Source: Candidatus Parcubacteria bacterium
GTDB taxonomy: Bacteria > Patescibacteriota > Minisyncoccia > Minisyncoccales > JAGMDC01
Length of the DNA stretch: 64,000 nt
NCBI GenBank assembly: GCA_023130975.1
Contig: JAGMAD010000006.1
Coordinates: 23,187-87,186, forward strand
Direction: 5' to 3'
Part shown: one piece after another, positions 2,175 to 39,485 of the stretch
Numbering within the stretch: the stretch's first letter is position 1
Layout of the letters: every line of letters starts with the position of its first letter
Program-made: the position numbers and the translations under genes
The notes under the pieces: model-generated
The model's input: only the letters and a program-made list of their open reading frames with translations
The model's database searches: none
What the model was told of the DNA's origin: nothing

Positions 2175-4073
2175 TTAAAAAGTTCCGGTGCAGATGAAAG
2201 TGAGACTGTCTGAATAGGAGCCTGCAGGCGTGGTGTTAGTAATTCCGGCTATGGGCTTTACGTCAACTGTTCCGCTATCAACCGCACCAGACGCGCTGGC
2301 AAAAGTTTGCGCCGAAGTAGTGAGCAGGGTAGTTCCATCTACAGCAAACCCAGCAGTAATAGTGAGAAGATAAGCGCTTGCTCCATAAACAGCGTAACCC
2401 TCGGTAGCGTTAGCCACAGAACTGGGTCCCACAGCGTCAATCAAATGGGTTGTTCCATATGATTTGTATAATCCGGCGCTAGTGCCGCTTCCTTGACTCC
2501 TTACTGTAATGACCAAGCCGCTGGTGGAGTTGGTTGACGCTCCAAGCTGAGTTGCCTGACCCGCGCCCGGATCTCCAGTGTCTCCTGTCTCAGCGCTGTT
2601 AGCCCACCGCTTGTTGGTGTCGGGCCAGGTCCCAAAACCAACAGCATTATTAGTAATGCTAAAACTTAAAGTAGGAGCGCTAGACGGTGTAAAAGGCGAG
2701 CCAGTAAAGATGACGCCGGCATCGTAGTTGCCGTTTGAATCTTTTTGAAAAACTTTATAAGAATAATCTTGGTCGTTGGTGAGCGCTACCGCGCTGCATC
2801 CGCCAGTCCCGGCTCCGTCAATACCGCTCACGCCAGCTGAAGCCGCGTCACCTGTGCGCATGCACGCAACTGTTGCTGTAGTAATGGTTTGATCCACGGT
2901 ATAATCTGTTCCTTCTGCTGGTACCTCGCTCCCAGGAGTTGCAGCGGCCCATCGCAAAACCACGGAACGGCTGAAATCAGAACTTGAGGAAGTTGTCCAG
3001 TTAAGAGTAACCTGCGTGTCTCCCTCGCTTCCGCTTGTGACTGTAGCTCCATTGGGCGATAAATTATCAATGGTGAGCGCGTTAGGATTAGTGTCACTGC
3101 CCAAATGAGTATATCCGCCTGTTCCTGTCCACGCAGTAACCGGCGCAGTGATGGCATACTCGGCTCCTGGCACTGCTGGCATCAAGCTATGAGTCTTTGG
3201 AGTAGCGCGGACCTTAAAAGTTGTTCCCTCTGTGCCCGCGGACATGCCTGAAACATTGATAACGTTTGAGTCGGCCGCAGGAGAAGTAGTGAACCCCAAT
3301 TCTGTATTGGCGCTGTCAGTGATATTTAATCTGCCGATGCCATTTGCGGTTGAAAGATTCACTGTTACATCAGTTATCGTCTCTGTGCCGCTACTTGTTG
3401 TTATAACAAACTGATCCACATCTGTCTCTACCCCCCCAGGAGCAATAGTAGCGGCTCCTGGATCAGTACCAGTGCTAAGAGTGGAAGTTAGAGAATAATC
3501 AACATAAAGATATGCCCGCCTAATATAAATCTCTGTTGTTGATGGGGAACCAGATTTATCATATTTAACTTTTAATTTTGCAGCTGTAATCTTTGCCCAA
3601 GTGTCTAATGTACCGCTTATATCAACATTTTCCCAATAATAGCTATCTGAAGAAGGATTGATGTCGCCAAGTTTTACACTCCACGCAGTACCATCATGGA
3701 TATAAACTTCCACAGAATCATTCCTTAATGTGTCAACTATTTTTAGCTCAAGATAAACTTTAACGCTATTTATAGCTCCACTAGCGGAAGGGTCAATAAA
3801 GGTGAATTCTTCGTGCCAATATTCATCGGTTTTTGTATAGATGTAGTTCGCAGTGTTGTTATCTAACCAGGGAGAACTCCCAAATTCTGTCCATTGTTCA
3901 TTAATAGAAGTAAATCCACTAACATAAAGTGTTTCATTACTCGTTTTTGCTTCCTGAATTTTTGGCGGAAAATCTAAAATTTGCGGCCAGCCGGAAAAAA
4001 CCCAGGCGGTAATTACAAAAAATATCATTATAAATTGTATTATTTTGTAAGTTCTTAAAACTTTAATCATCAT
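2175..4073 (-). CDS. large secreted surface protein (N-terminal beta-sandwich, FN3-like segment, WxL-like C-terminal domain)
   Basis: 632 aa with N-terminal TM. FN3-like VTLNWTTSSSSDF..YSYKVFQKDSNGN. C-terminus LSFSITNNAVGFGTW..RWAN..YSDSLTFICTGTF shared with 920..2011. Confidence 0.6.
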   Translation of the reverse strand: MMIKVLRTYKIIQFIMIFFVITAWVFSGWPQILDFPPKIQEAKTSNETLYVSGFTSINEQWTEFGSSPWLDNNTANYIYTKTDEYWHEEFTFIDPSASGAINSVKVYLELKIVDTLRNDSVEVYIHDGTAWSVKLGDINPSSDSYYWENVDISGTLDTWAKITAAKLKVKYDKSGSPSTTEIYIRRAYLYVDYSLTSTLSTGTDPGAATIAPGGVETDVDQFVITTSSGTETITDVTVNLSTANGIGRLNITDSANTELGFTTSPAADSNVINVSGMSAGTEGTTFKVRATPKTHSLMPAVPGAEYAITAPVTAWTGTGGYTHLGSDTNPNALTIDNLSPNGATVTSGSEGDTQVTLNWTTSSSSDFSRSVVLRWAAATPGSEVPAEGTDYTVDQTITTATVACMRTGDAASAGVSGIDGAGTGGCSAVALTNDQDYSYKVFQKDSNGNYDAGVIFTGSPFTPSSAPTLSFSITNNAVGFGTWPDTNKRWANSAETGDTGDPGAGQATQLGASTNSTSGLVITVRSQGSGTSAGLYKSYGTTHLIDAVGPSSVANATEGYAVYGASAYLLTITAGFAVDGTTLLTTSAQTFASASGAVDSGTVDVKPIAGITNTTPAGSYSDSLTFICTGTF

Positions 4074-4151: not shown

Positions 4152-4170
4152 TCAGAGAACTGTTCTCTGA
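4152..4170. repeat. REP-like perfect palindrome TCAGAGAAC-T-GTTCTCTGA, 2 nt after the RAYT stop
   Basis: Read directly; same core at 4869-4885 and degenerate at 4645-4662. Confidence 0.85.
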
Positions 4171-4172
4171 TT

Positions 4173-4859
4173 TTATTTGATCTCTTTTTTGTATTTTACC
4201 CAATTTTCAATAAATTTTCTACATCCTTCTTTCCCGCCCATTACTTCAAGCATAAAATCTCTTTCAGTTACTGAATGGAAATTCTTTTTTCCAATATAAT
4301 CAGGATAACTTGACCATTTATAATTTTCTAAAAATTCAATTACTTTTTCTGGATTTTTAATTCCTATTTCTTTCCATTTTGGTTCTATTAAAGATATGCC
4401 ATTGGTATGAATATAGACAAACACAGTTTTTAGTTGTTCATTAGTTTTGATGTGAACTGCCCGAAATCTTCCCTGAAAAAGATGACCCTTCCGATTATAT
4501 TTTTTATTGAAATAGGCAGCATAACCAGCGCCAAATTTTCTCATAAATTGGCTTATTCCTTCGTCTTTAAGTTGCTTCACTAATAAATGAATATGATTAG
4601 GCATAAAATAAAAAGCCCAAATCTCTACTAATAAATCTCGATTATCAGAGAACTGTTCTTTGTTTCTTTTCTTTATTTTAATACGCACTTTTCGTCGTTC
4701 CCTAATAGTAATTGGCGTTTCTATTGTATTAAATTCATAGAGAGAGAAAATTGCTCGATAATAATCATTCTCGTCCTTGAAAATTAAAGAATCTCCGACT
4801 CCTCGAATAACAATATGATAAATTTCACCATTAACTAATTGTGGTCGTTGAATAGGCAT
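4173..4859 (-). CDS. REP-associated tyrosine transposase (RAYT, IS200/Y1 HUH family)
   Basis: 228 aa with HUH motif in MPNHIHLLV and a downstream Tyr region FVYIHTNG. The N-terminus QLVNGEIYHIVIRG is typical of COG1943 proteins. Flanked on both sides by the same palindrome. Confidence 0.8.
   Translation of the reverse strand: MPIQRPQLVNGEIYHIVIRGVGDSLIFKDENDYYRAIFSLYEFNTIETPITIRERRKVRIKIKKRNKEQFSDNRDLLVEIWAFYFMPNHIHLLVKQLKDEGISQFMRKFGAGYAAYFNKKYNRKGHLFQGRFRAVHIKTNEQLKTVFVYIHTNGISLIEPKWKEIGIKNPEKVIEFLENYKWSSYPDYIGKKNFHSVTERDFMLEVMGGKEGCRKFIENWVKYKKEIK
4645..4662. repeat. degenerate third copy of the REP palindrome inside the RAYT CDS
   Basis: TCAGAGAACTGTTCTTTG, two differences from the flanking copies; encodes KEQFSD. 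Confidence 0.6.
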
Positions 4860-4868
4860 ACTAATTTA

Positions 4869-4885
4869 CAGAGAACTGTTCTCTG
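4869..4885. repeat. REP-like palindrome CAGAGAAC-T-GTTCTCTG, 9 nt upstream of the RAYT start
   Basis: Read directly. Confidence 0.85.
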
Positions 4886-14957: not shown

Positions 14958-15293
14958 TTATAAGTCGAAATGAATTCTTAAATAATCTTTAACTTGCTCT
15001 GTTATATTTTTCTTTACAGCCCCAATTCGTTTAATAAAACGAGATTCATCAAAAGACTGAATATGATAAACCTTTAATATTGAATCACAAAACAATCTAT
15101 TCTGGCCATCTCTGGCCACTAAAATATCATCTCGAATTTTATTATTTGAATTTGAGGTAAGCGGAATTATCGTAAAAACAGAACTCTGTTTAATTTGAGA
15201 GTCGGTCTCAATAATTAAAGCCGGCCGCTCTTTTTTATATTCGTGGCCGACTGAATTCAAAAATTTGACTAGCCAAATCTCGCCTTGCTTCAT
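14958..15293 (-). CDS. MazF/PemK family endoribonuclease toxin
   Basis: 111 aa; GEIWLVKF..GHEYKKERPALII..IIPLTS pattern of PemK/MazF; 4-nt ATGA overlap with the upstream gene. Confidence 0.85.
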   Translation of the reverse strand: MKQGEIWLVKFLNSVGHEYKKERPALIIETDSQIKQSSVFTIIPLTSNSNNKIRDDILVARDGQNRLFCDSILKVYHIQSFDESRFIKRIGAVKKNITEQVKDYLRIHFDL

Positions 15294-16144
15294 AGGTTCT
15301 TATAATAATTATGTTCTTTATCCGGCATCTCGCCTAAACTTTTAAGCGTGTCTCCGGCCGCCGCATCTTGCCATACTTGTTCGTAATCACATTGAGCATA
15401 AGGCAATTTACGAAAAACCACTAAACCATAAGGAATAATTTCATTATCTTTAGTCGAGCTCCACGGTGCATCTCCATGAACATATTCTTCAATTTGCCTA
15501 GCACCCATATCTGACAAACGAGTAAGTACTTTATCAACTAACTCTTTCTCTTTTACTGAAAAATTATCCATTTTATAATCCTTTAGAGCTATATATCTTT
15601 TTTGAGTCATTCCGTAATAATCTTGATTAAAAACTTTTATTTCTTGATCATCCCTCATATCTTGAATAACTGGCTGATATTGTTTTAATTGTGGTATAGA
15701 TCCGAATTTCTGATGAATATAATTCATTCCCGTTACCGGCTTTCCTAAAGCCTCATAAGCATCGAAGTCAATAAAATATAAAAGCTTATATAAAACTGTC
15801 TCACCAAAATTCGGCTTACCACCGCACTTTGACAAAATATATAAAATAAGTTCACGCAACTTCTCAGATTCAAATTTTATACCCTTATTTGCGTTTACTA
15901 TATATTTACTCTTAGCGAGATCTTTAATTTCTACTCTTTTATTCTGAAGTAACTCGTCAGTGCTTAATTTGAACACCTTCGCCATCTTGGCCAATTCCAA
16001 AGCATTAAGGCTACGATTACCCCTTTCAATCTCTGACAATGCCGCACGTGAAATACCAATAAATTTTGCTAATTCTTCTTGACTTAGTTCTCGTTCATCA
16101 CGCAACTTTTTAATTTTTTGACCTAATTGTTTTTGTGTAAGCAT
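15290..16144 (-). CDS. antitoxin: XRE-type HTH fused to Panacea (DUF4065/SocA-like) domain
   Basis: 284 aa; N-terminus LSQEELAKFIGISRAALSEIERGNR (HTH_3); C-terminus GETVLYKLLYFIDFDAYEALGKPVTGMNYIHQKFGSIP typical of DUF4065. Confidence 0.8.
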   Translation of the reverse strand: MLTQKQLGQKIKKLRDERELSQEELAKFIGISRAALSEIERGNRSLNALELAKMAKVFKLSTDELLQNKRVEIKDLAKSKYIVNANKGIKFESEKLRELILYILSKCGGKPNFGETVLYKLLYFIDFDAYEALGKPVTGMNYIHQKFGSIPQLKQYQPVIQDMRDDQEIKVFNQDYYGMTQKRYIALKDYKMDNFSVKEKELVDKVLTRLSDMGARQIEEYVHGDAPWSSTKDNEIIPYGLVVFRKLPYAQCDYEQVWQDAAAGDTLKSLGEMPDKEHNYYKNL

Positions 16145-20631: not shown

Positions 20632-20760
20632 TTACTTGCGTATCTTCACTCGTTCCTTTTCGGTAGTTCTTGGTTTTTTTTCAGCCTGTTTTCTTAAAAT
20701 AAATTTACCAGTTATTGAACTTCTATATATTATCCTTGTTTTTATTTTACTTTTTCCCAT
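20632..20760 (-). CDS. 42-aa basic small protein
   Basis: MGKSKIKTRIIYRSSITGKFILRKQAEKKPRTTEKERVKIRK. Below the ORF-track cutoff. Has its own TATAAT plus AAAGGTCGG box upstream and a terminator downstream. Resembles a recurrent small-protein family (R-S-x-x-T-G-x-F-V ... T-T-x-x-E). Confidence 0.5.
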   Translation of the reverse strand: MGKSKIKTRIIYRSSITGKFILRKQAEKKPRTTEKERVKIRK

Positions 20761-20842
20761 AATTTAAAGAGTTTTTAGAGTCCGACCTTTCTATTATATT
20801 TTAACACATTAAAAAACTTAAGGGAACAACCTCGAGAAGTTG

Positions 20843-20913
20843 GCTCCGCCAACTGGACGCTGCTGCACCCCGTAGTTCCCGCCTTAACGGGATACTACTG
20901 GGGTTAGAACCTG
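20843..20913 (-). repeat. family-1 tRNA-like 3' element, long form with 38-nt hairpin insert
   Basis: Minus reading CAGGTTCTAA[CCCCAGTAGTATCCCGTTAAGGCGGGAACTACGGGGTG]CAGCAGCGTCCAGTTGGCGGAGC; starts 5 nt after the stop of 20918..21352. Confidence 0.7.
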
Positions 20914-20917
20914 TCTT

Positions 20918-21352
20918 TTATCTAATTTTACTTAAATCACTATCAAGAATAACTGGTCTCATAGCTTCTATTTCTTCCTTGTAATTTATGTCAGGAATGG
21001 GATTTAGTAAAAATATCTTTTTACCTAAAACATAAGCAAATCCCATTTCTAAAAAAGTGTTACCTCCAATATAGTTTTTGATGCTATTTTTATCAAAATT
21101 CAAAACTAAAACCGCATCACTATTTTTTATTCTTTCTATATGCTCATCGATTAATGATTTCTTGATCTTCAATAAATCTTCTGTAAAATTATTTTTCCTC
21201 ATTGTGTGATAATCCTTCATAGATACAACATTGCCATTTACCTCAACTCCTTGCGACCAAATAAAAACAAGATGGTTTTCCTGTTCCAATCTTTTCTTAA
21301 TTTCGTAGCATTCTTTGGTAAAAAATGCTGATGAGCAAATTGTTATTTTCAT
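20918..21352 (-). CDS. nucleoside 2-deoxyribosyltransferase-like protein
   Basis: 144 aa; MKITICSSAFF..SDAVLVLN..YIGGNTFLEMGFAYVLGKKIFLL pattern of the NDT-like/YtoQ-type fold. Confidence 0.5.
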   Translation of the reverse strand: MKITICSSAFFTKECYEIKKRLEQENHLVFIWSQGVEVNGNVVSMKDYHTMRKNNFTEDLLKIKKSLIDEHIERIKNSDAVLVLNFDKNSIKNYIGGNTFLEMGFAYVLGKKIFLLNPIPDINYKEEIEAMRPVILDSDLSKIR

Positions 21353-21377
21353 AATTAAAGATTTAAACTTGATTTTT

Positions 21378-21487
21378 ATTTCGGCAGCTAGGATGAAAGC
21401 TGCCGAAAGAACTTGCCCGCCCGCTTCGCCGAAGCTTCAGCGAGGCGAGAAGGGATACCCTACCCTTCAGGGTAGGATAGTTCATAA
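21378..21487. repeat. 110-nt three-hairpin element, copy A (inverted partner at 23040-23150)
   Basis: The central 56 nt are identical to the reverse complement of copy B. The flanking hairpins differ by compensatory changes. Overlaps the last 9 codons and stop of maf. Confidence 0.85.
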
Positions 21488-22056
21488 CCGACATCAGGAA
21501 GCATTTCAACTATTATTTCCAAAGGAATACCTCTTAAAAGATTATTATAACTTCCCTCTATTCTTTGAATAAATGCCGAACTGGAATGCTTTAAGGGGTC
21601 ATAACCCAAAGCATAAGTATTAAAATGAGGGTCTTCATCAAGATATTTCTCAATTTCTTTATCTGAAAGTTTTCTCATAAATACCTCTGTTTTAACAACT
21701 CTTGAAATTATTTTATTCAAAGATGTATTAATCATATAAATTCCTGTATAAAATTGATGGTTATTTCCTGACAGGGATTGTAGCCGCTGAAATTTTTCTT
21801 CTTTTGATTTTGGCTTTTCAAGAATCTGATTATTAAAATATCCAACAGAATCCATCCCAATTACAATAGCGTCGGAATGGTTTTTAGCCACTGCTTCCGC
21901 CTTTAATCTGGAAAGATTTTTTACCAATTCTTCAGGATTATTTCTCTCCGCTTTAGATTCATCCACATTACTTCCTTCCACTTCAAAATCAATTCCTAAA
22001 TATCCAAATGCTTCTTTGCGGTATGGAGAAGTTGTGGCTAAAATTAGTTTGGTCAT
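21460..22056 (-). CDS. maf: Maf-like nucleoside triphosphate pyrophosphatase
   Basis: 198 aa; LILATTSPYRKEAFGYLGIDFEV.., GIYMIN.., typical Maf. Confidence 0.85.
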   Translation of the reverse strand: MTKLILATTSPYRKEAFGYLGIDFEVEGSNVDESKAERNNPEELVKNLSRLKAEAVAKNHSDAIVIGMDSVGYFNNQILEKPKSKEEKFQRLQSLSGNNHQFYTGIYMINTSLNKIISRVVKTEVFMRKLSDKEIEKYLDEDPHFNTYALGYDPLKHSSSAFIQRIEGSYNNLLRGIPLEIIVEMLPDVGYELSYPEG

Positions 22057-22067
22057 AAAAATAAATT

Positions 22068-22163
22068 AATGAATTTTATCTAAATCTTTATTTATAACTA
22101 TTGGCTGCATTACTTTAATCTCATCTCTATAAAGCATATACTGGCACAAATTACAATTTTCAT
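22068..22163 (-). pseudogene. internally deleted remnant of an NDT-like paralog
   Basis: ATG at 22161-22163 gives MKIVICAS (compare MKITICSS of 20918..21352). A second frame gives YRDEIKVMQPIVINKDLDKIH* (compare KEEIEAMRPVILDSDLSKIR*). The middle of the gene is missing. Confidence 0.6.
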
Positions 22164-22178
22164 ATTGCTTTATCTTAC

Positions 22179-22206
22179 AAAAAAATTGCCTTCTTGGCAA
22201 TTTTTT
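22179..22206 (-). terminator. terminator AAAAAATTGCC-ttctt-GGCAATTTTTT
   Basis: Perfect palindrome with A-run and T-run. Confidence 0.7.
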
Positions 22207-22210
22207 ATCG

Positions 22211-22240
22211 GCTCCCCCAACTGGACGCTATTAGAACCTG
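22211..22240 (-). repeat. family-1 tRNA-like 3' element
   Basis: Minus reading CAGGTTCTAATAGCGTCCAGTTGGGGGAGC, between the stop of 22314..22937 and its terminator. Confidence 0.7.
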
Positions 22241-22313
22241 TTTAAGGGAAATTTAAATAAAAAAGTGGGGGGCAGAAAGAAATCTCATGATTTTTCCTTG
22301 CCTCCCTTAGGAA

Positions 22314-22937
22314 TTATGGCTCTACCTTTACACTCCAAGTAATCTCTTCTTTACGAGCGCCCGGCTCAAGCTTCACTTTATCCTGGTCAACCATACTTTT
22401 AAGTTTTTTTTCGTTGACATCTGTATTTATCTTCTGGCTCATCACCTTTGGTAATTCTTCCTCAGAAATACCAAGGCCCATCAGAGCTTTTTTTATGGTT
22501 TTTTCCAGAATCTCTTCGGAAATAGTAATTCCCTTTTTGGTGACAAAGCCAACTGGAACGGAGACAGAAACAATCAGTGTTTCTCTGACTATGGCTGAAT
22601 AACTAATCTGCAAAGATTGTCTTAGCAAATCTCTGTCATAACTCACTTTCTCACTAGGAAATGTAGTAAGAACAAAATTGTCCTTTTCTGAGACAAGACC
22701 TCGCAATCCCTTGGTTTCTTGGGCTATTTTAAGTATTTGTTCTCTGTCGAGAAGCCGAACCCCATCCAATCTGTCTATTTCACATTTGATTGTATAGTAT
22801 TTTCTAGCCAGTCCATAAAACTCCTCGATAGTTCTACGCAAGATATCCAGCTCAACATCTGGCTCTCTTCTTAATTGAACCCCCTCAATATGAGTCGGGA
22901 AAGTACCAAATCTCTCTTTTTTTACCATTTTCTTCAC
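22314..22937 (-). CDS. hypothetical protein
   Basis: 207 aa; SD-like AGAGGTGA upstream; no family recognised. Confidence 0.55.
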   Translation of the reverse strand: MKKMVKKERFGTFPTHIEGVQLRREPDVELDILRRTIEEFYGLARKYYTIKCEIDRLDGVRLLDREQILKIAQETKGLRGLVSEKDNFVLTTFPSEKVSYDRDLLRQSLQISYSAIVRETLIVSVSVPVGFVTKKGITISEEILEKTIKKALMGLGISEEELPKVMSQKINTDVNEKKLKSMVDQDKVKLEPGARKEEITWSVKVEP

Positions 22938-22980
22938 CTCTTTTTATATTATGTGCTGTATATTTCTAATCTTAGTTTCT

Positions 22981-23021
22981 TAAACAAAAAAGTCAAGCCC
23001 GAGGCGCAAGACGCCTCGGGC
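22981..23021 (-). terminator. strong intrinsic terminator
   Basis: GCCCGAGGCG-tcttg-CGCCTCGGGC followed by TTGACTTTTTTG on the minus strand. Confidence 0.8.
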
Positions 23022-23039
23022 AAAGAAGTGATAACTCAA

Positions 23040-23150
23040 TTATGAACTACCCTGCCCTAAAGGGCAGGGTATCCCTTCTCGCCTCGCTGAAGCTTCGGCG
23101 AAGCGGGCGGGCAAGTTCTTTCGGCGGTGGAGTATTCCCGCCGCCGAAAT
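23040..23150. repeat. 111-nt three-hairpin element, copy B
   Basis: Reverse complement of copy A. On the minus strand it starts 3 nt after the stop of 23154..23468 and is followed by the 22981-23021 terminator. Confidence 0.85.
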
Positions 23151-23153
23151 AGA

Positions 23154-23468
23154 TTAATATTCTAATTTTACTCCAAGTTTATCTGCTAAAGATTGGATCC
23201 ATTTTTCATGACGATTAAGTTGATTTGATACAGCTACATATTCTGTTTTTAAGTCACTAACCGCTTTAACAAGTTTATCCACTGAGTTTGTTAAGTTTTG
23301 AATAGATCCTCTAAGAGCAATAAGCTCTTGTTTTGTTTCCTTTCTCAATAAATCAAACTCTTCAAGGGTTACTAATTTTGAACTTAAATTATTTAAATCC
23401 TCTTTGGTGGTTGTGTTCTGAAACTTCTCATCCAAATATTCAATTAATTCTTTATAATCTTTGTCCAT
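23154..23468 (-). CDS. coiled-coil hypothetical protein
   Basis: 104 aa from ATG 23468 (track uses GTG 23471); heptad-rich; TTGACA-N16-TATAAT sits 7 nt upstream of the ATG. Confidence 0.55.
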   Translation of the reverse strand: MDKDYKELIEYLDEKFQNTTTKEDLNNLSSKLVTLEEFDLLRKETKQELIALRGSIQNLTNSVDKLVKAVSDLKTEYVAVSNQLNRHEKWIQSLADKLGVKLEY

Positions 23469-23508
23469 CACTTTAATTATAAAACCTCAAAAACTAATGT
23501 CAAATTCA

Positions 23509-23538
23509 GCTCCCCCAACTAAATACTGTTAGAACCTG
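23509..23538 (-). repeat. family-1 tRNA-like 3' element (diverged)
   Basis: Minus reading CAGGTTCTAACAGTATTTAGTTGGGGGAGC, 9 nt after the stop of 23548..23769. Confidence 0.6.
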
Positions 23539-23547
23539 CTTAGCAAT

Positions 23548-23769
23548 CTAAAGTTCTTCTTTTTGAAACTTCTCTTCCTGGATTTGGTCTGACCTCCTGA
23601 TAATTTTTATTAATTCGGCAACATGTTCTTTTTCGTCATCTCTAATATGACCCAATATCTTTTTAACTTCTTTATTATCAGTTTCATCTATATGTTCCTG
23701 ATATTGATTAATAGCTTGTAGTTCTCCTATTAAATCTTCTCTTAAGTTTTTTAGAGTTTTATTGTCCAT
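23548..23769 (-). CDS. small ferritin-like (EncFtn-like) protein
   Basis: 73 aa; IGELQAINQYQEHI..ILGHIRDDEKEHVAELIKIIRR parallels the ExxA..Y....HNxNEExEH..xLxWIRR pattern of encapsulated-ferritin-type proteins. Confidence 0.5.
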   Translation of the reverse strand: MDNKTLKNLREDLIGELQAINQYQEHIDETDNKEVKKILGHIRDDEKEHVAELIKIIRRSDQIQEEKFQKEEL

Positions 23770-36557: not shown

Positions 36558-36640
36558 AATTTTAATTATTTTATTAATTATCAACCTTTATTCTATTTTA
36601 CCAAAAAACCGCCTCTTTGGCGAGACGGCTTCGCTGCTCT

Positions 36641-36672
36641 GCTCCCCCTACAGAACGCATTTAGAACAGTTG
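36641..36672 (-). repeat. family-1 element with tRNA-trailer-like tail
   Basis: Minus reading CAACTGTTCTAAATGCGTTCTGTAGGGGGAGC, then AGAGCAGCGAAGCC as found after the tRNA-Asn 3' end. Confidence 0.55.
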
Positions 36673-39158: not shown

Positions 39159-39454
39159 CTCTGCGGGTAGGATTCGAACCTACAACCTAAGGCTTACATC
39201 TAATCCTAACATTTCTATTAGGGATGGACTATCTCATCCCCCTTTTTTTAATTAAAAAGAGGGGGCGAGGCGCTATAAGTCTCTGAACCTTCCGAGCATA
39301 TAAAGCGTCATGTACTCGGCTTGGCTGCGGATTACCATTGATTCGATAAATCGACCATTAGGCTTCCCGCAATTCACCTCGTTTTTCATTTAGTATCTCT
39401 ACTAAAAGCTGCAAAAATTTACAGGCCCTCGCGCTACCATTGCGCCACCGCAGA
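39159..39454 (-). tRNA. tRNA-Asn(GUU) interrupted by a group I intron; CCA not encoded
   Basis: The exons 39454-39421 and 39196-39159 join into a 72-nt cloverleaf. It has acceptor TCTGCGG/CCGCAGA, D-loop AATGGTA, anticodon loop CTGT|TAA, T-arm GTAGG-TTCGAAT-CCTAC and G73. Confidence 0.85.
39197..39420 (-). ncRNA. group I intron (IC3-like) in the anticodon loop, no internal ORF
   Basis: P1 is CUGU/GCAG with U.G at the 5' splice site. Core strings are GCGGGAAGCCUAA, AAUCCGCAGCCAAGCCGAG, CUCGGAAGGUUCAGAGACU and GAUAGUCC. A terminal G precedes the 3' exon. Confidence 0.8.
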
Positions 39455-39485
39455 GCAAAATAGTGAAAAAAATATTTTAATAAAA

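Follow-up and report, generated by a model that had tools for sequence, protein, structure and literature searches.

The window analyzed here, a 64,000-nt stretch of the genome of a Candidatus Parcubacteria bacterium (GCA_023130975.1, contig JAGMAD010000006.1, forward-strand positions 23,187 to 87,186), carries an inverted pair of GC-rich, three-hairpin elements, copy A at the end of the gene maf and copy B 3' of a gene for a 105-aa coiled-coil protein. With a probability of roughly 75%, both copies are insertions of a non-autonomous palindromic DNA repeat, similar to repetitive extragenic palindromic (REP) sequences and bacterial interspersed mosaic elements (BIMEs) or to palindrome-associated transposable elements (PATEs), and not an RNA gene. 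The observations are two inserted copies, a relative of the element that lacks its central 30-nt block, junctions at the tetranucleotide TTAT that show no target duplication, and a widespread, nested 30-nt module that is tolerated in genes. Read with TTAT at the 5' side, the architecture is TTAT followed by GAACT, hairpin 3, the block hairpin, AGTTC, and hairpin 1. The element is probably a mosaic, in which the middle hairpin has been lengthened by a 30-nt imperfect palindrome acting as a module of its own. It is a new family of palindromic non-autonomous repeat and is assigned to no named family because the REP tag is absent, the element does not flank the gene for a Y1-type transposase protein in the same window, and its structure is like that of IS200/IS605 but no matching insertion sequence (IS) is present in the window.

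Element borders are set from the alignment of copy A with the reverse complement of copy B, where homology extends from TTTCGGC to AGTTC and is followed in both by ATAA. The features of the pair are:

21379..21483, plus strand: copy A, 105 nt, between maf and an NDT-like gene
21379..21408, plus strand: hairpin 1 of copy A (TTTCGGCAGCT / AGCTGCCGAAA)
21420..21449, plus strand: 30-nt block CCCGCTTCGCCGAAGCTTCAGCGAGGCGAG in copy A, an imperfect palindrome centered on GAAGCTTC
21457..21478, plus strand: hairpin 3 of copy A (ACCCTACCC TTCA GGGTAGGAT)
21484..21487, minus strand: TTAT target tetranucleotide adjoining copy A (ATAA on the plus strand)
23044..23149, minus strand: copy B, 106 nt, lying 3' of the stop codon (23154-23156) of the 105-aa coiled-coil gene and 5' of its terminator
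23078..23107, minus strand: 30-nt block in copy B
23040..23043, plus strand: TTAT adjoining copy B
22997..23021, minus strand: intrinsic terminator 3' of copy B (11-bp stem, 9 GC pairs, T tract), outside the element

The original prediction, made from the letters of the window, described an inverted pair of hairpin elements, and the pair is real. A repeat search of the window identifies inverted arms at 21402-21487 and 23040-23125 that are 86 nt long, 95% complementary, and 1552 nt apart, and the 50-nt core has two exact matches versus none in shuffles. Alignment confirms that the central 56 nt are identical between copies, and the copies are as GC-rich as had been claimed (0.57-0.64 vs 0.35 for the window). 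No third copy was found in the 64 kb with sensitive BLAST, for a window total of two. Identical Maf protein and identical DNA are also present in GCA_030629575.1 and in a scaffold of the European Nucleotide Archive.

Copy A is an insertion relative to the same site in close relatives. Hundreds of close homologues of Maf exist, and three relatives (L047, L049, and L052; Maf 86-90% identical) were compared at the DNA level. In each, maf ends ~10 nt before the same 143-146-aa NDT-like gene and nothing is between them. Their DNA at the end of maf reads GTCGGTTATAAATTTAATCAAGTTTAAATC, whereas the aligned DNA of the window reads GTCGGTTAT, then an insert that begins with GAACTATCC and ends with GCTGCCGAAA, then TAAAAATCAAGTTTAAATC. 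The alignment is unambiguous, and the element is absent from ~130 kb of DNA of the three relatives. The insertion swaps the last five residues of Maf, KFNQV, for ELSYPEG and a stop, with 7 codons and the TAG contributed by the element (hairpin 3 on the minus strand). The element had been said to supply the end and stop of maf, which it does, but with seven codons rather than nine. The altered tail is outside the Pfam Maf domain (residues 3-187), and the NDT-like gene is displaced ~100 nt from maf.

Copy B adds ~106 nt of stable hairpins to a 3' untranslated region (UTR). As described originally, it follows a stop codon, that of the 105-aa gene, and precedes a strong terminator (23021-22997), although the gap to the stop codon is 4 nt and not 3. 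Homologues of the 105-aa gene (~70% identical) lack copy B at their 3' sides and have AT-rich spacers and terminators or unrelated GC-rich hairpins there instead. These homologues, too diverged to be compared base by base, show only that copy B is no conserved part of this 3' UTR. Both copies are certainly transcribed within longer mRNAs, in opposite senses. The effects of the two insertions on the host are side effects, and any stabilizing or processing effect on RNA would be a by-product of insertion.

A relative of the element lacks the block. When the two outer hairpins were compared by BLAST against all fetched DNA, the sole significant match was in contigs L061, L062, and L063, which are from relatives. 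These contigs encode a protein whose match to the 105-aa protein covers its first ~60 residues (58%) at 92% identity. The sequence reads CGTCGAAAAACTTGCCCG^AAGGGATACCTTGCTTTTTAAGGCAAGGTAGTTC followed by ATAATTAAAATG. Relative to copies A and B, a gap of exactly 30 nt (1-nt ambiguity) takes the place of the block, and homology ends partway along the first arm of hairpin 1, at the start of a truncated NDT-like gene (70-aa open reading frame, ORF). The outer element thus appears not to need the block. Because the element in L061 is without exactly the block, the block can be viewed as a later addition to an older mini-hairpin (CCC-GAA-GGG).

The three copies also reveal how the element meets its target. 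On the TTAT-bearing strand, all three read TTAT followed by GAACTA. At the maf site, TTAT is part of a native, conserved GGTTAT that is present in relatives without the element. TTAT also pre-exists upstream of the 105-aa gene in the window, the site empty of the L061 insertion, and window and L061 are identical from ATAATTAAA onward. TTAT is target DNA and lies outside the element. It is at 3 of 3 junctions and pre-exists in both empty sites that can be inferred; with TTAT at ~1% per position, two independent empty sites having the tetranucleotide at the junction are expected by chance at ~1e-4. At the other end (CCGAAA followed by TA), TTAT is absent, so the target has not been duplicated. 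The ends, GAACTA... and ...CCGAAA, do not form inverted repeats, and each end has different flanking sequence. The gap from the TTAT end to hairpin 3 is 5-6 nt, and at the opposite end hairpin 1 runs to the border. A target duplication of TA was considered and rejected, as it would take away the conserved maf codon TAT.

Fragments of genes are found beside the elements. A 20-aa copy of the C-terminus of the NDT-like protein is directly upstream of maf (22066-22200, minus strand), and in L061 (2776-2988), an NDT-like gene cut at about codon 57 runs into the element. The order of genes around maf is different in every relative. Together, the gene fragments and variable order suggest element-associated rearrangements. 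A 207-aa gene between the copies (22314-22937, minus strand) matches nothing in Pfam. L044 and L045 contain the same DNA, and the collection queried lists no gene with this exact product.

Single-strand transposition by HUH (Y1) enzymes, as in IS200/IS605, has a signature of three features seen here together, namely a fixed tetranucleotide directly 5' of the insertion, no duplication, and subterminal hairpins (PMC6006769). By analogy with the IS200/IS605 and REP/RAYT (REP-associated tyrosine transposase) systems, cleavage and joining would occur 3' of TTAT. That the element moves as hairpin-folded single-stranded DNA via a Y1 HUH enzyme provided in trans is a tentative proposal, less likely than not to be right. 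One locus in the window is relevant to this proposal:

4173..4859, minus strand: single-copy gene for a Y1 HUH (RAYT-like) protein of 228 aa, HuH motif NHIH, Tyr motif YIHTNG
4153..4169, plus strand: palindrome CAGAGAACTGTTCTCTG with TTAT before it, downstream of the Y1 gene
4869..4885, minus strand: inverted copy of the palindrome with CTAT at its 5' foot, upstream of the Y1 gene
4646..4662, plus strand: third copy of the palindrome, 1 mismatch, TTAT-tagged, in frame inside the Y1 gene

The product is the only Y1 protein encoded in the window, is class 2-like (NHIH / YIHTNG), and matches Pfam Y1_Tnp with 42.9 bits (cut-off of 23). Its gene is at one genomic place only. The motifs resemble those of class 2 TnpA-REP subclasses 2.4 and 2.6, and REPs that flank and interrupt tnpA are the REPtron arrangement described for subclass 2.4 (PMC6006769). 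The 17-nt palindrome CAGAGAACWGTTCTCTG has three matches in the window versus 0.17 expected, a 5' foot of TTAT (two copies) or CTAT, and an inner stem of GAAC-W-GTTC. The element starts with GAACT directly after TTAT and closes with AGTTC, and has TTAT and GAAC/GTTC in common with the palindrome, a likeness expected by chance in roughly 1%. The resemblance is suggestive but no proof, and the Y1 gene at 4173-4859 is a possible trans-acting enzyme for the element, a candidacy we regard with some doubt. Related GAGAACNGTTCTC palindromes are present in relative L052 at 1030, 19686, and 20167.

The 30-nt block has a distribution of its own. One genome per bacterial or archaeal species was scanned for exact matches to the central 25-mer, yielding 43 loci among the matches listed, with flanks unrelated to the window in all. 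What these loci have in common is a sharply bounded 30 nt, CCCGCTTCGCCGAAGCTTCAGCGAGGCGAG, extending 5 nt past the query to where conservation ends. Records with the block are labeled Daviesbacteria (three metagenome-assembled genomes, MAGs, with up to 6 loci each), Levyibacteria, Roizmanbacteria, Saccharibacteria, and other Patescibacteria, as well as WOR-3 (5 loci in one MAG) and Elusimicrobia, Omnitrophota, Planctomycetia, Bacteroidetes, and 'Gammaproteobacteria' MAGs. Two cultured Chelativorans species are also among the labels. It is exact in 42 of 46 instances. Extra copies in the 378 kb of flanking DNA are all variants, one each with 1 mismatch, with 4 mismatches, internally deleted, and interrupted. 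The palindrome around GAAGCTTC has three departures from symmetry, all of which are transitions. Across the 43 loci, no family of proteins is encoded repeatedly within 3 kb of the block, and a BLAST search of plasmids and phages with the block returned partial matches only. Three rhizobial and Ralstonia matches were inspected and discarded as chance similarity in GC-rich sequence.

Locations of the block correlate with hairpin loops. Its flanks pair with each other (-11.5 kcal/mol vs -8.4 ± 0.47 kcal/mol for mismatched flank pairs). In silico removal of the block places the junction inside a hairpin loop at 20 of 44 loci, as compared to 11.5 ± 2.3 in controls, and one base off the loop, within the 1-nt ambiguity of the borders, in ~9 further loci. 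A recurrent site, ATTCCCG^CGAAAGCGGGAAT, is a GAAA-loop hairpin, and short CCCG/CNGG homologies often precede the block. In L017, an older, diverged block holds a second block exactly at its apical loop, between CCCGCCTCGCCGA and AGCCTCAGCGAGGCGAG. A likeness of the flanks in L026 and L006 to tRNA was considered and rejected, as ARAGORN finds no tRNA in them.

The block is also in frame in genes, including those for an ABC transporter, MiaA, CarA, PrmC, ribosomal proteins L7/L12, S5, and L4, endonuclease V, and an MBL hydrolase. It is open in five of six frames, all five of which are used in genes; the sixth contains TGA. Block-bearing composites of 32 codons in CarA and 46 codons in MiaA align as insertions versus solved homologues. 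The ratio of sense to antisense orientations in genes, 9:6, equals that of open frames, as predicted for random orientation, which argues against a strand-specific RNA role.

Composite elements of 56-172 nt, bounded by GTCAT(T/C)C...GGAATGAC and having two or three hairpins, occur with or without the block in L002-L004, L010, L015, L020, L030, L033, L037, L042, and L043 (Daviesbacteria and others) and in L001 (Chelativorans). Two of these are in frame, in carA (96 nt) and miaA (138 nt).

The block may be a separate, tiny insertion module that is independently mobile, although we consider the odds to be against it. An extended version, in which the block is a mobile unit that crosses phyla with a horizontally transferred Y1 HUH enzyme and inserts without duplication into loops of single-stranded DNA hairpins, including its own, to build mosaics, is rather unlikely as a whole; if it holds, the block would rank with the smallest mobile units known. 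If the block is mobile, its survival in essential genes can be attributed to its length of 10 codons and its five of six open frames.

Several points weigh against reading the copies as insertions of a mobile repeat with a mobile block. With relatives that are 10-30% diverged, junctions can be placed no more exactly than to a few bases. The copy in L061 is counted as a rearranged junction and not a clean insertion because it abuts a truncated gene on one side. In principle, a precise deletion might account for its 30-nt difference; insertion of the block is favored because the same 30-nt borders are found in 44 unrelated contexts. Known copies of the element amount to only two full and one partial. 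Phylum labels of the block loci are those of the deposited MAG records, taken as given, and the exactness of the block is partly ascertainment because the search used an exact 25-mer. The Y1 protein scores 40 bits on NCBIfam REP_Tyr_transpos, under the cut-off of 80, and its YIHTNG has G where the Y---NP of class 2 has P. Lastly, the palindrome beside the Y1 gene is distinct from the element and resembles it only in TTAT and GAACT/GTTC.

The folds of the element bear on alternative explanations. Both strands of both copies are predicted to fold stably (-55 to -65 kcal/mol; z = -5.3 to -6.7 vs shuffles) into hairpin 1 and then a closing stem, GAACT/AGTTC, around the middle (block) hairpin and hairpin 3. 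Copies A and B keep the basal stem of hairpin 1, TTTCGGC/GCCGAAA, but have wholly different tops. They differ at four positions in hairpin 3, two of which form one compensatory pair. Compensatory changes in the terminal hairpins, reported originally as covariation typical of a structured site, do exist but are not significant: 3 of 40 pairs are doubly changed between the two sequences, which is equaled by 65 of 500 shuffles. In L061, pairing in hairpin 3 is retained via two more compensatory pairs and one wobble; of the 9 pairs in this hairpin, 3 have changes on both sides when the three sequences are compared (equaled by 15 of 500 shuffles). Covariation between A and B is real but thin. Changes that preserve hairpins are equally expected for a DNA hairpin element, such as one recognized by a Y1-type enzyme. 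Correction of quasi-palindromes by template switching, an established mutational process, would also give such compensatory changes.

Template switching could be invoked more broadly, with hairpins and block spreading and changing by this process and by local duplication, in the absence of any dedicated enzyme, and with TTAT being coincidental in AT-rich DNA. The block being at the tips of hairpins, the CCCG/CNGG homologies often 5' of it, the 43 loci with no linked transposase gene, and the top of hairpin 1 wholly replaced on a conserved base are all in line with this explanation. Yet switching at variable microhomologies would not give the same 30-nt borders in unrelated contexts, copies A and B have both ends in common, and TTAT at 3/3 junctions and 2/2 empty sites has the ~1e-4 chance given above. 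We consider an origin without a dedicated enzyme improbable.

Still less probable, by a small degree, is that the element is a functional structured RNA, whether a stabilizer in 3' UTRs, an intercistronic processing or attenuation element, or a small RNA, with selection on RNA pairing accounting for the compensatory changes. Both copies are inside transcription units, A within what is a tight maf-NDT pair in relatives and B between stop codon and terminator, their folds are very stable, and pairing in hairpin 3 survives three double changes in three sequences. REP-type hairpins are also known to stabilize upstream mRNA (PMC3733652). But the copies present opposite strands to their transcripts, wobble and mismatch positions favor no strand consistently, and the block is found in either orientation and within coding sequence. 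The element is absent at orthologous sites, including that of maf in the three relatives, and an effect on RNA, if any, would be secondary to insertion. Rfam has no match to the element at gathering thresholds. In an E-value scan of 20700-23700, models overlapping its edges have E of 1.1 to 8.5, with 17-20 bits versus gathering scores of 39-90 bits. The original prediction was correct that the element belongs to no known RNA family and its wording of a structure-dependent DNA site is close to what the evidence favors, whereas a conserved structured RNA, 3' UTR element, or small RNA is not supported. What emerged, a MITE-like element (MITE, miniature inverted-repeat transposable element) with no further full-length copy in the collections searched, is essentially the outcome that the prediction had itself named as refuting it. 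A weak match to RNAI at 22177-22255 was rejected, being a terminator beside another motif.

It is very improbable that recombination between the two copies turns the 1.55-kb segment with maf and the 207-aa gene around as a switch, an inversion suggested originally and possible in principle given 86-nt inverted repeats of 95% identity with 56 identical bases, and with varying gene order around maf and gene fragments adjoining elements, because the other recovered contigs with this sequence (L044 and L045) are in the same orientation as the window with nothing to indicate switching, inversion would disrupt the maf-NDT arrangement and set genes against their neighbors, no invertase gene is adjacent, and insertion already explains the copies.

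As an inserted palindromic repeat, the element has likenesses to several known systems. Like REPs, BIMEs, and REPtrons with their RAYT (TnpA-REP) proteins, it consists of short, imperfect palindromes in mosaics, and those repeats are mostly intergenic, have a conserved tetranucleotide at the foot of the hairpin, and sometimes provide stop codons or sit in frame in genes (PMC3116915, PMC3733652, PMC6006769). In REPtrons, a single-copy Y1 gene is flanked by its palindromes and may also be interrupted by them in frame, as in the window at 4153-4885. But the REP tag is GT[AG]G or CGTC, in contrast to TTAT here, which is part of the target and not of the element, and the block has neither tag. REPs are hairpins of 20-40 nt or doublets of these; the block (30 nt) and the palindrome next to the Y1 gene (17 nt) fit this format, the 105-nt three-hairpin unit does not. 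Further, a REPtron gene is flanked by the same repeat it is cognate to, whereas the Y1 gene here is flanked by CAGAGAACWGTTCTCTG and not by the element. REPs have many dispersed genomic copies; the 64 kb covered here holds two of the element.

With IS200/IS605 and PATEs, the element has in common, as observed here, the lack of terminal inverted repeats and of target duplication, a constant tetranucleotide directly 5' of the insertion, and subterminal hairpins at each end. It differs in that the window has no IS200-type TnpA (Y---Q motif) or TnpB and the ends match no resident IS. Distances from hairpin to cleavage site in IS608 also differ from those of the element. MITEs of the terminal inverted repeat type are distinguished by such repeats and by a target-site duplication, neither of which the element has. 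For the block, the nearest analogue is SDR4-6 of cyanobacteria (Elhai et al. 2008), which reportedly are 21-27 nt long, mobile, and precisely inserted into other repeats and palindromes but are said to be restricted to Nostocales and to be unrelated to the block in sequence.

Two more comparisons concern behavior. Rickettsia palindromic elements also insert in frame and leave genes intact, as do the block and the GTCAT...ATGAC composites in CarA, MiaA, and genes for ribosomal proteins. They are 100-150 bp and reportedly found only in Rickettsia (PMC3733652, PMC10969869); the block is 30 nt with records from many phyla, and the likeness is one of in-frame behavior only. GC clusters of yeast mitochondria (GC42) are likewise tiny, GC-rich palindromes in an AT-rich genome with no gene of their own, and they proliferate, cross species, and merge and shuffle into larger mosaics (PMC4478555). 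They differ in being mitochondrial, having AG target duplications, and being unrelated in sequence.

The full-length element was not found in viral contigs, in the scan of species genomes, in a scan of metagenomes (among the matches listed), or in protein space. Three patterns had no match in viral contigs, and the three listed metagenome matches to a 22-mer of the left junction are by chance, in GC-rich coding sequence. Translations of the element had no match in protein space, where the first search was possibly limited by its word index, as known block-bearing proteins were missed as well. Searches of full-text literature, also by sequence, turned up neither elements of this kind in Patescibacteria nor the block, and the block is absent from the supplements of two REP surveys.

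Other hairpins are present in the window and in relatives. An intergenic motif, GGTTCTAA(T/A)NGCGTYC-N4-GGGGGAGC, has four copies between minus-strand genes (20840-20876, 22208-22244, 23506-23542, and about 36630-36665, all on the minus strand) and is also in L061 at about 3350-3380. One copy is just upstream of a perfect sigma-70 promoter (23503-23476) and others are followed by hairpins or terminators. The motif could be a promoter-associated site or a small RNA or leader family of the clade. The copy at 20840-20916 is split by a GC-rich hairpin insertion of ~45 nt (CCCCGTAGTTCCCGCCTTAACGGGATACTACTGGGG; 20852-20897) that has the heptamer GTAGTTC in common with the end of the main element. 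In relatives L057 (3382-3495) and L052 (12957-13024), other, unrelated GC-rich islands of multiple hairpins are in AT-rich intergenic DNA; one of the islands is 3' of a homologue of the 105-aa gene and its hairpin CCCCGCCC-TAAA-GGGCGGGG resembles hairpin 3.

Two other loci in the window deserve mention. A group I intron (39165-39455, minus strand; Rfam RF00028, 84 bits at 39205-39430) is in the anticodon loop of an apparent tRNA-Asn(GUU) that was missed by ARAGORN, fitting a recent report of such introns in tRNA-Asn and tRNA-Asp genes of Patescibacteria (PMC13011429). A gene for a PemK/MazF-type toxin adjoins one with HTH and SocA/Panacea domains (14958-16144, minus strand), likely forming a toxin-antitoxin pair.

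What was a candidate for a new structured RNA is corrected to a parasitic palindromic insertion, one that altered the C-terminus of Maf and split a tight gene pair. Genomes of Patescibacteria are thought to be streamlined, and such repeats are apparently new for them, judging from the full-text literature. For annotation of MAGs, the blocks are a warning, as they create spurious ORFs and false signals of covarying RNA. The block could be useful for studying the spread of very small DNA modules and the building of mosaic repeats. Duplication-free junctions at TTAT and a REPtron-like Y1 locus in the same 64 kb represent a testable pair of enzyme and substrate.

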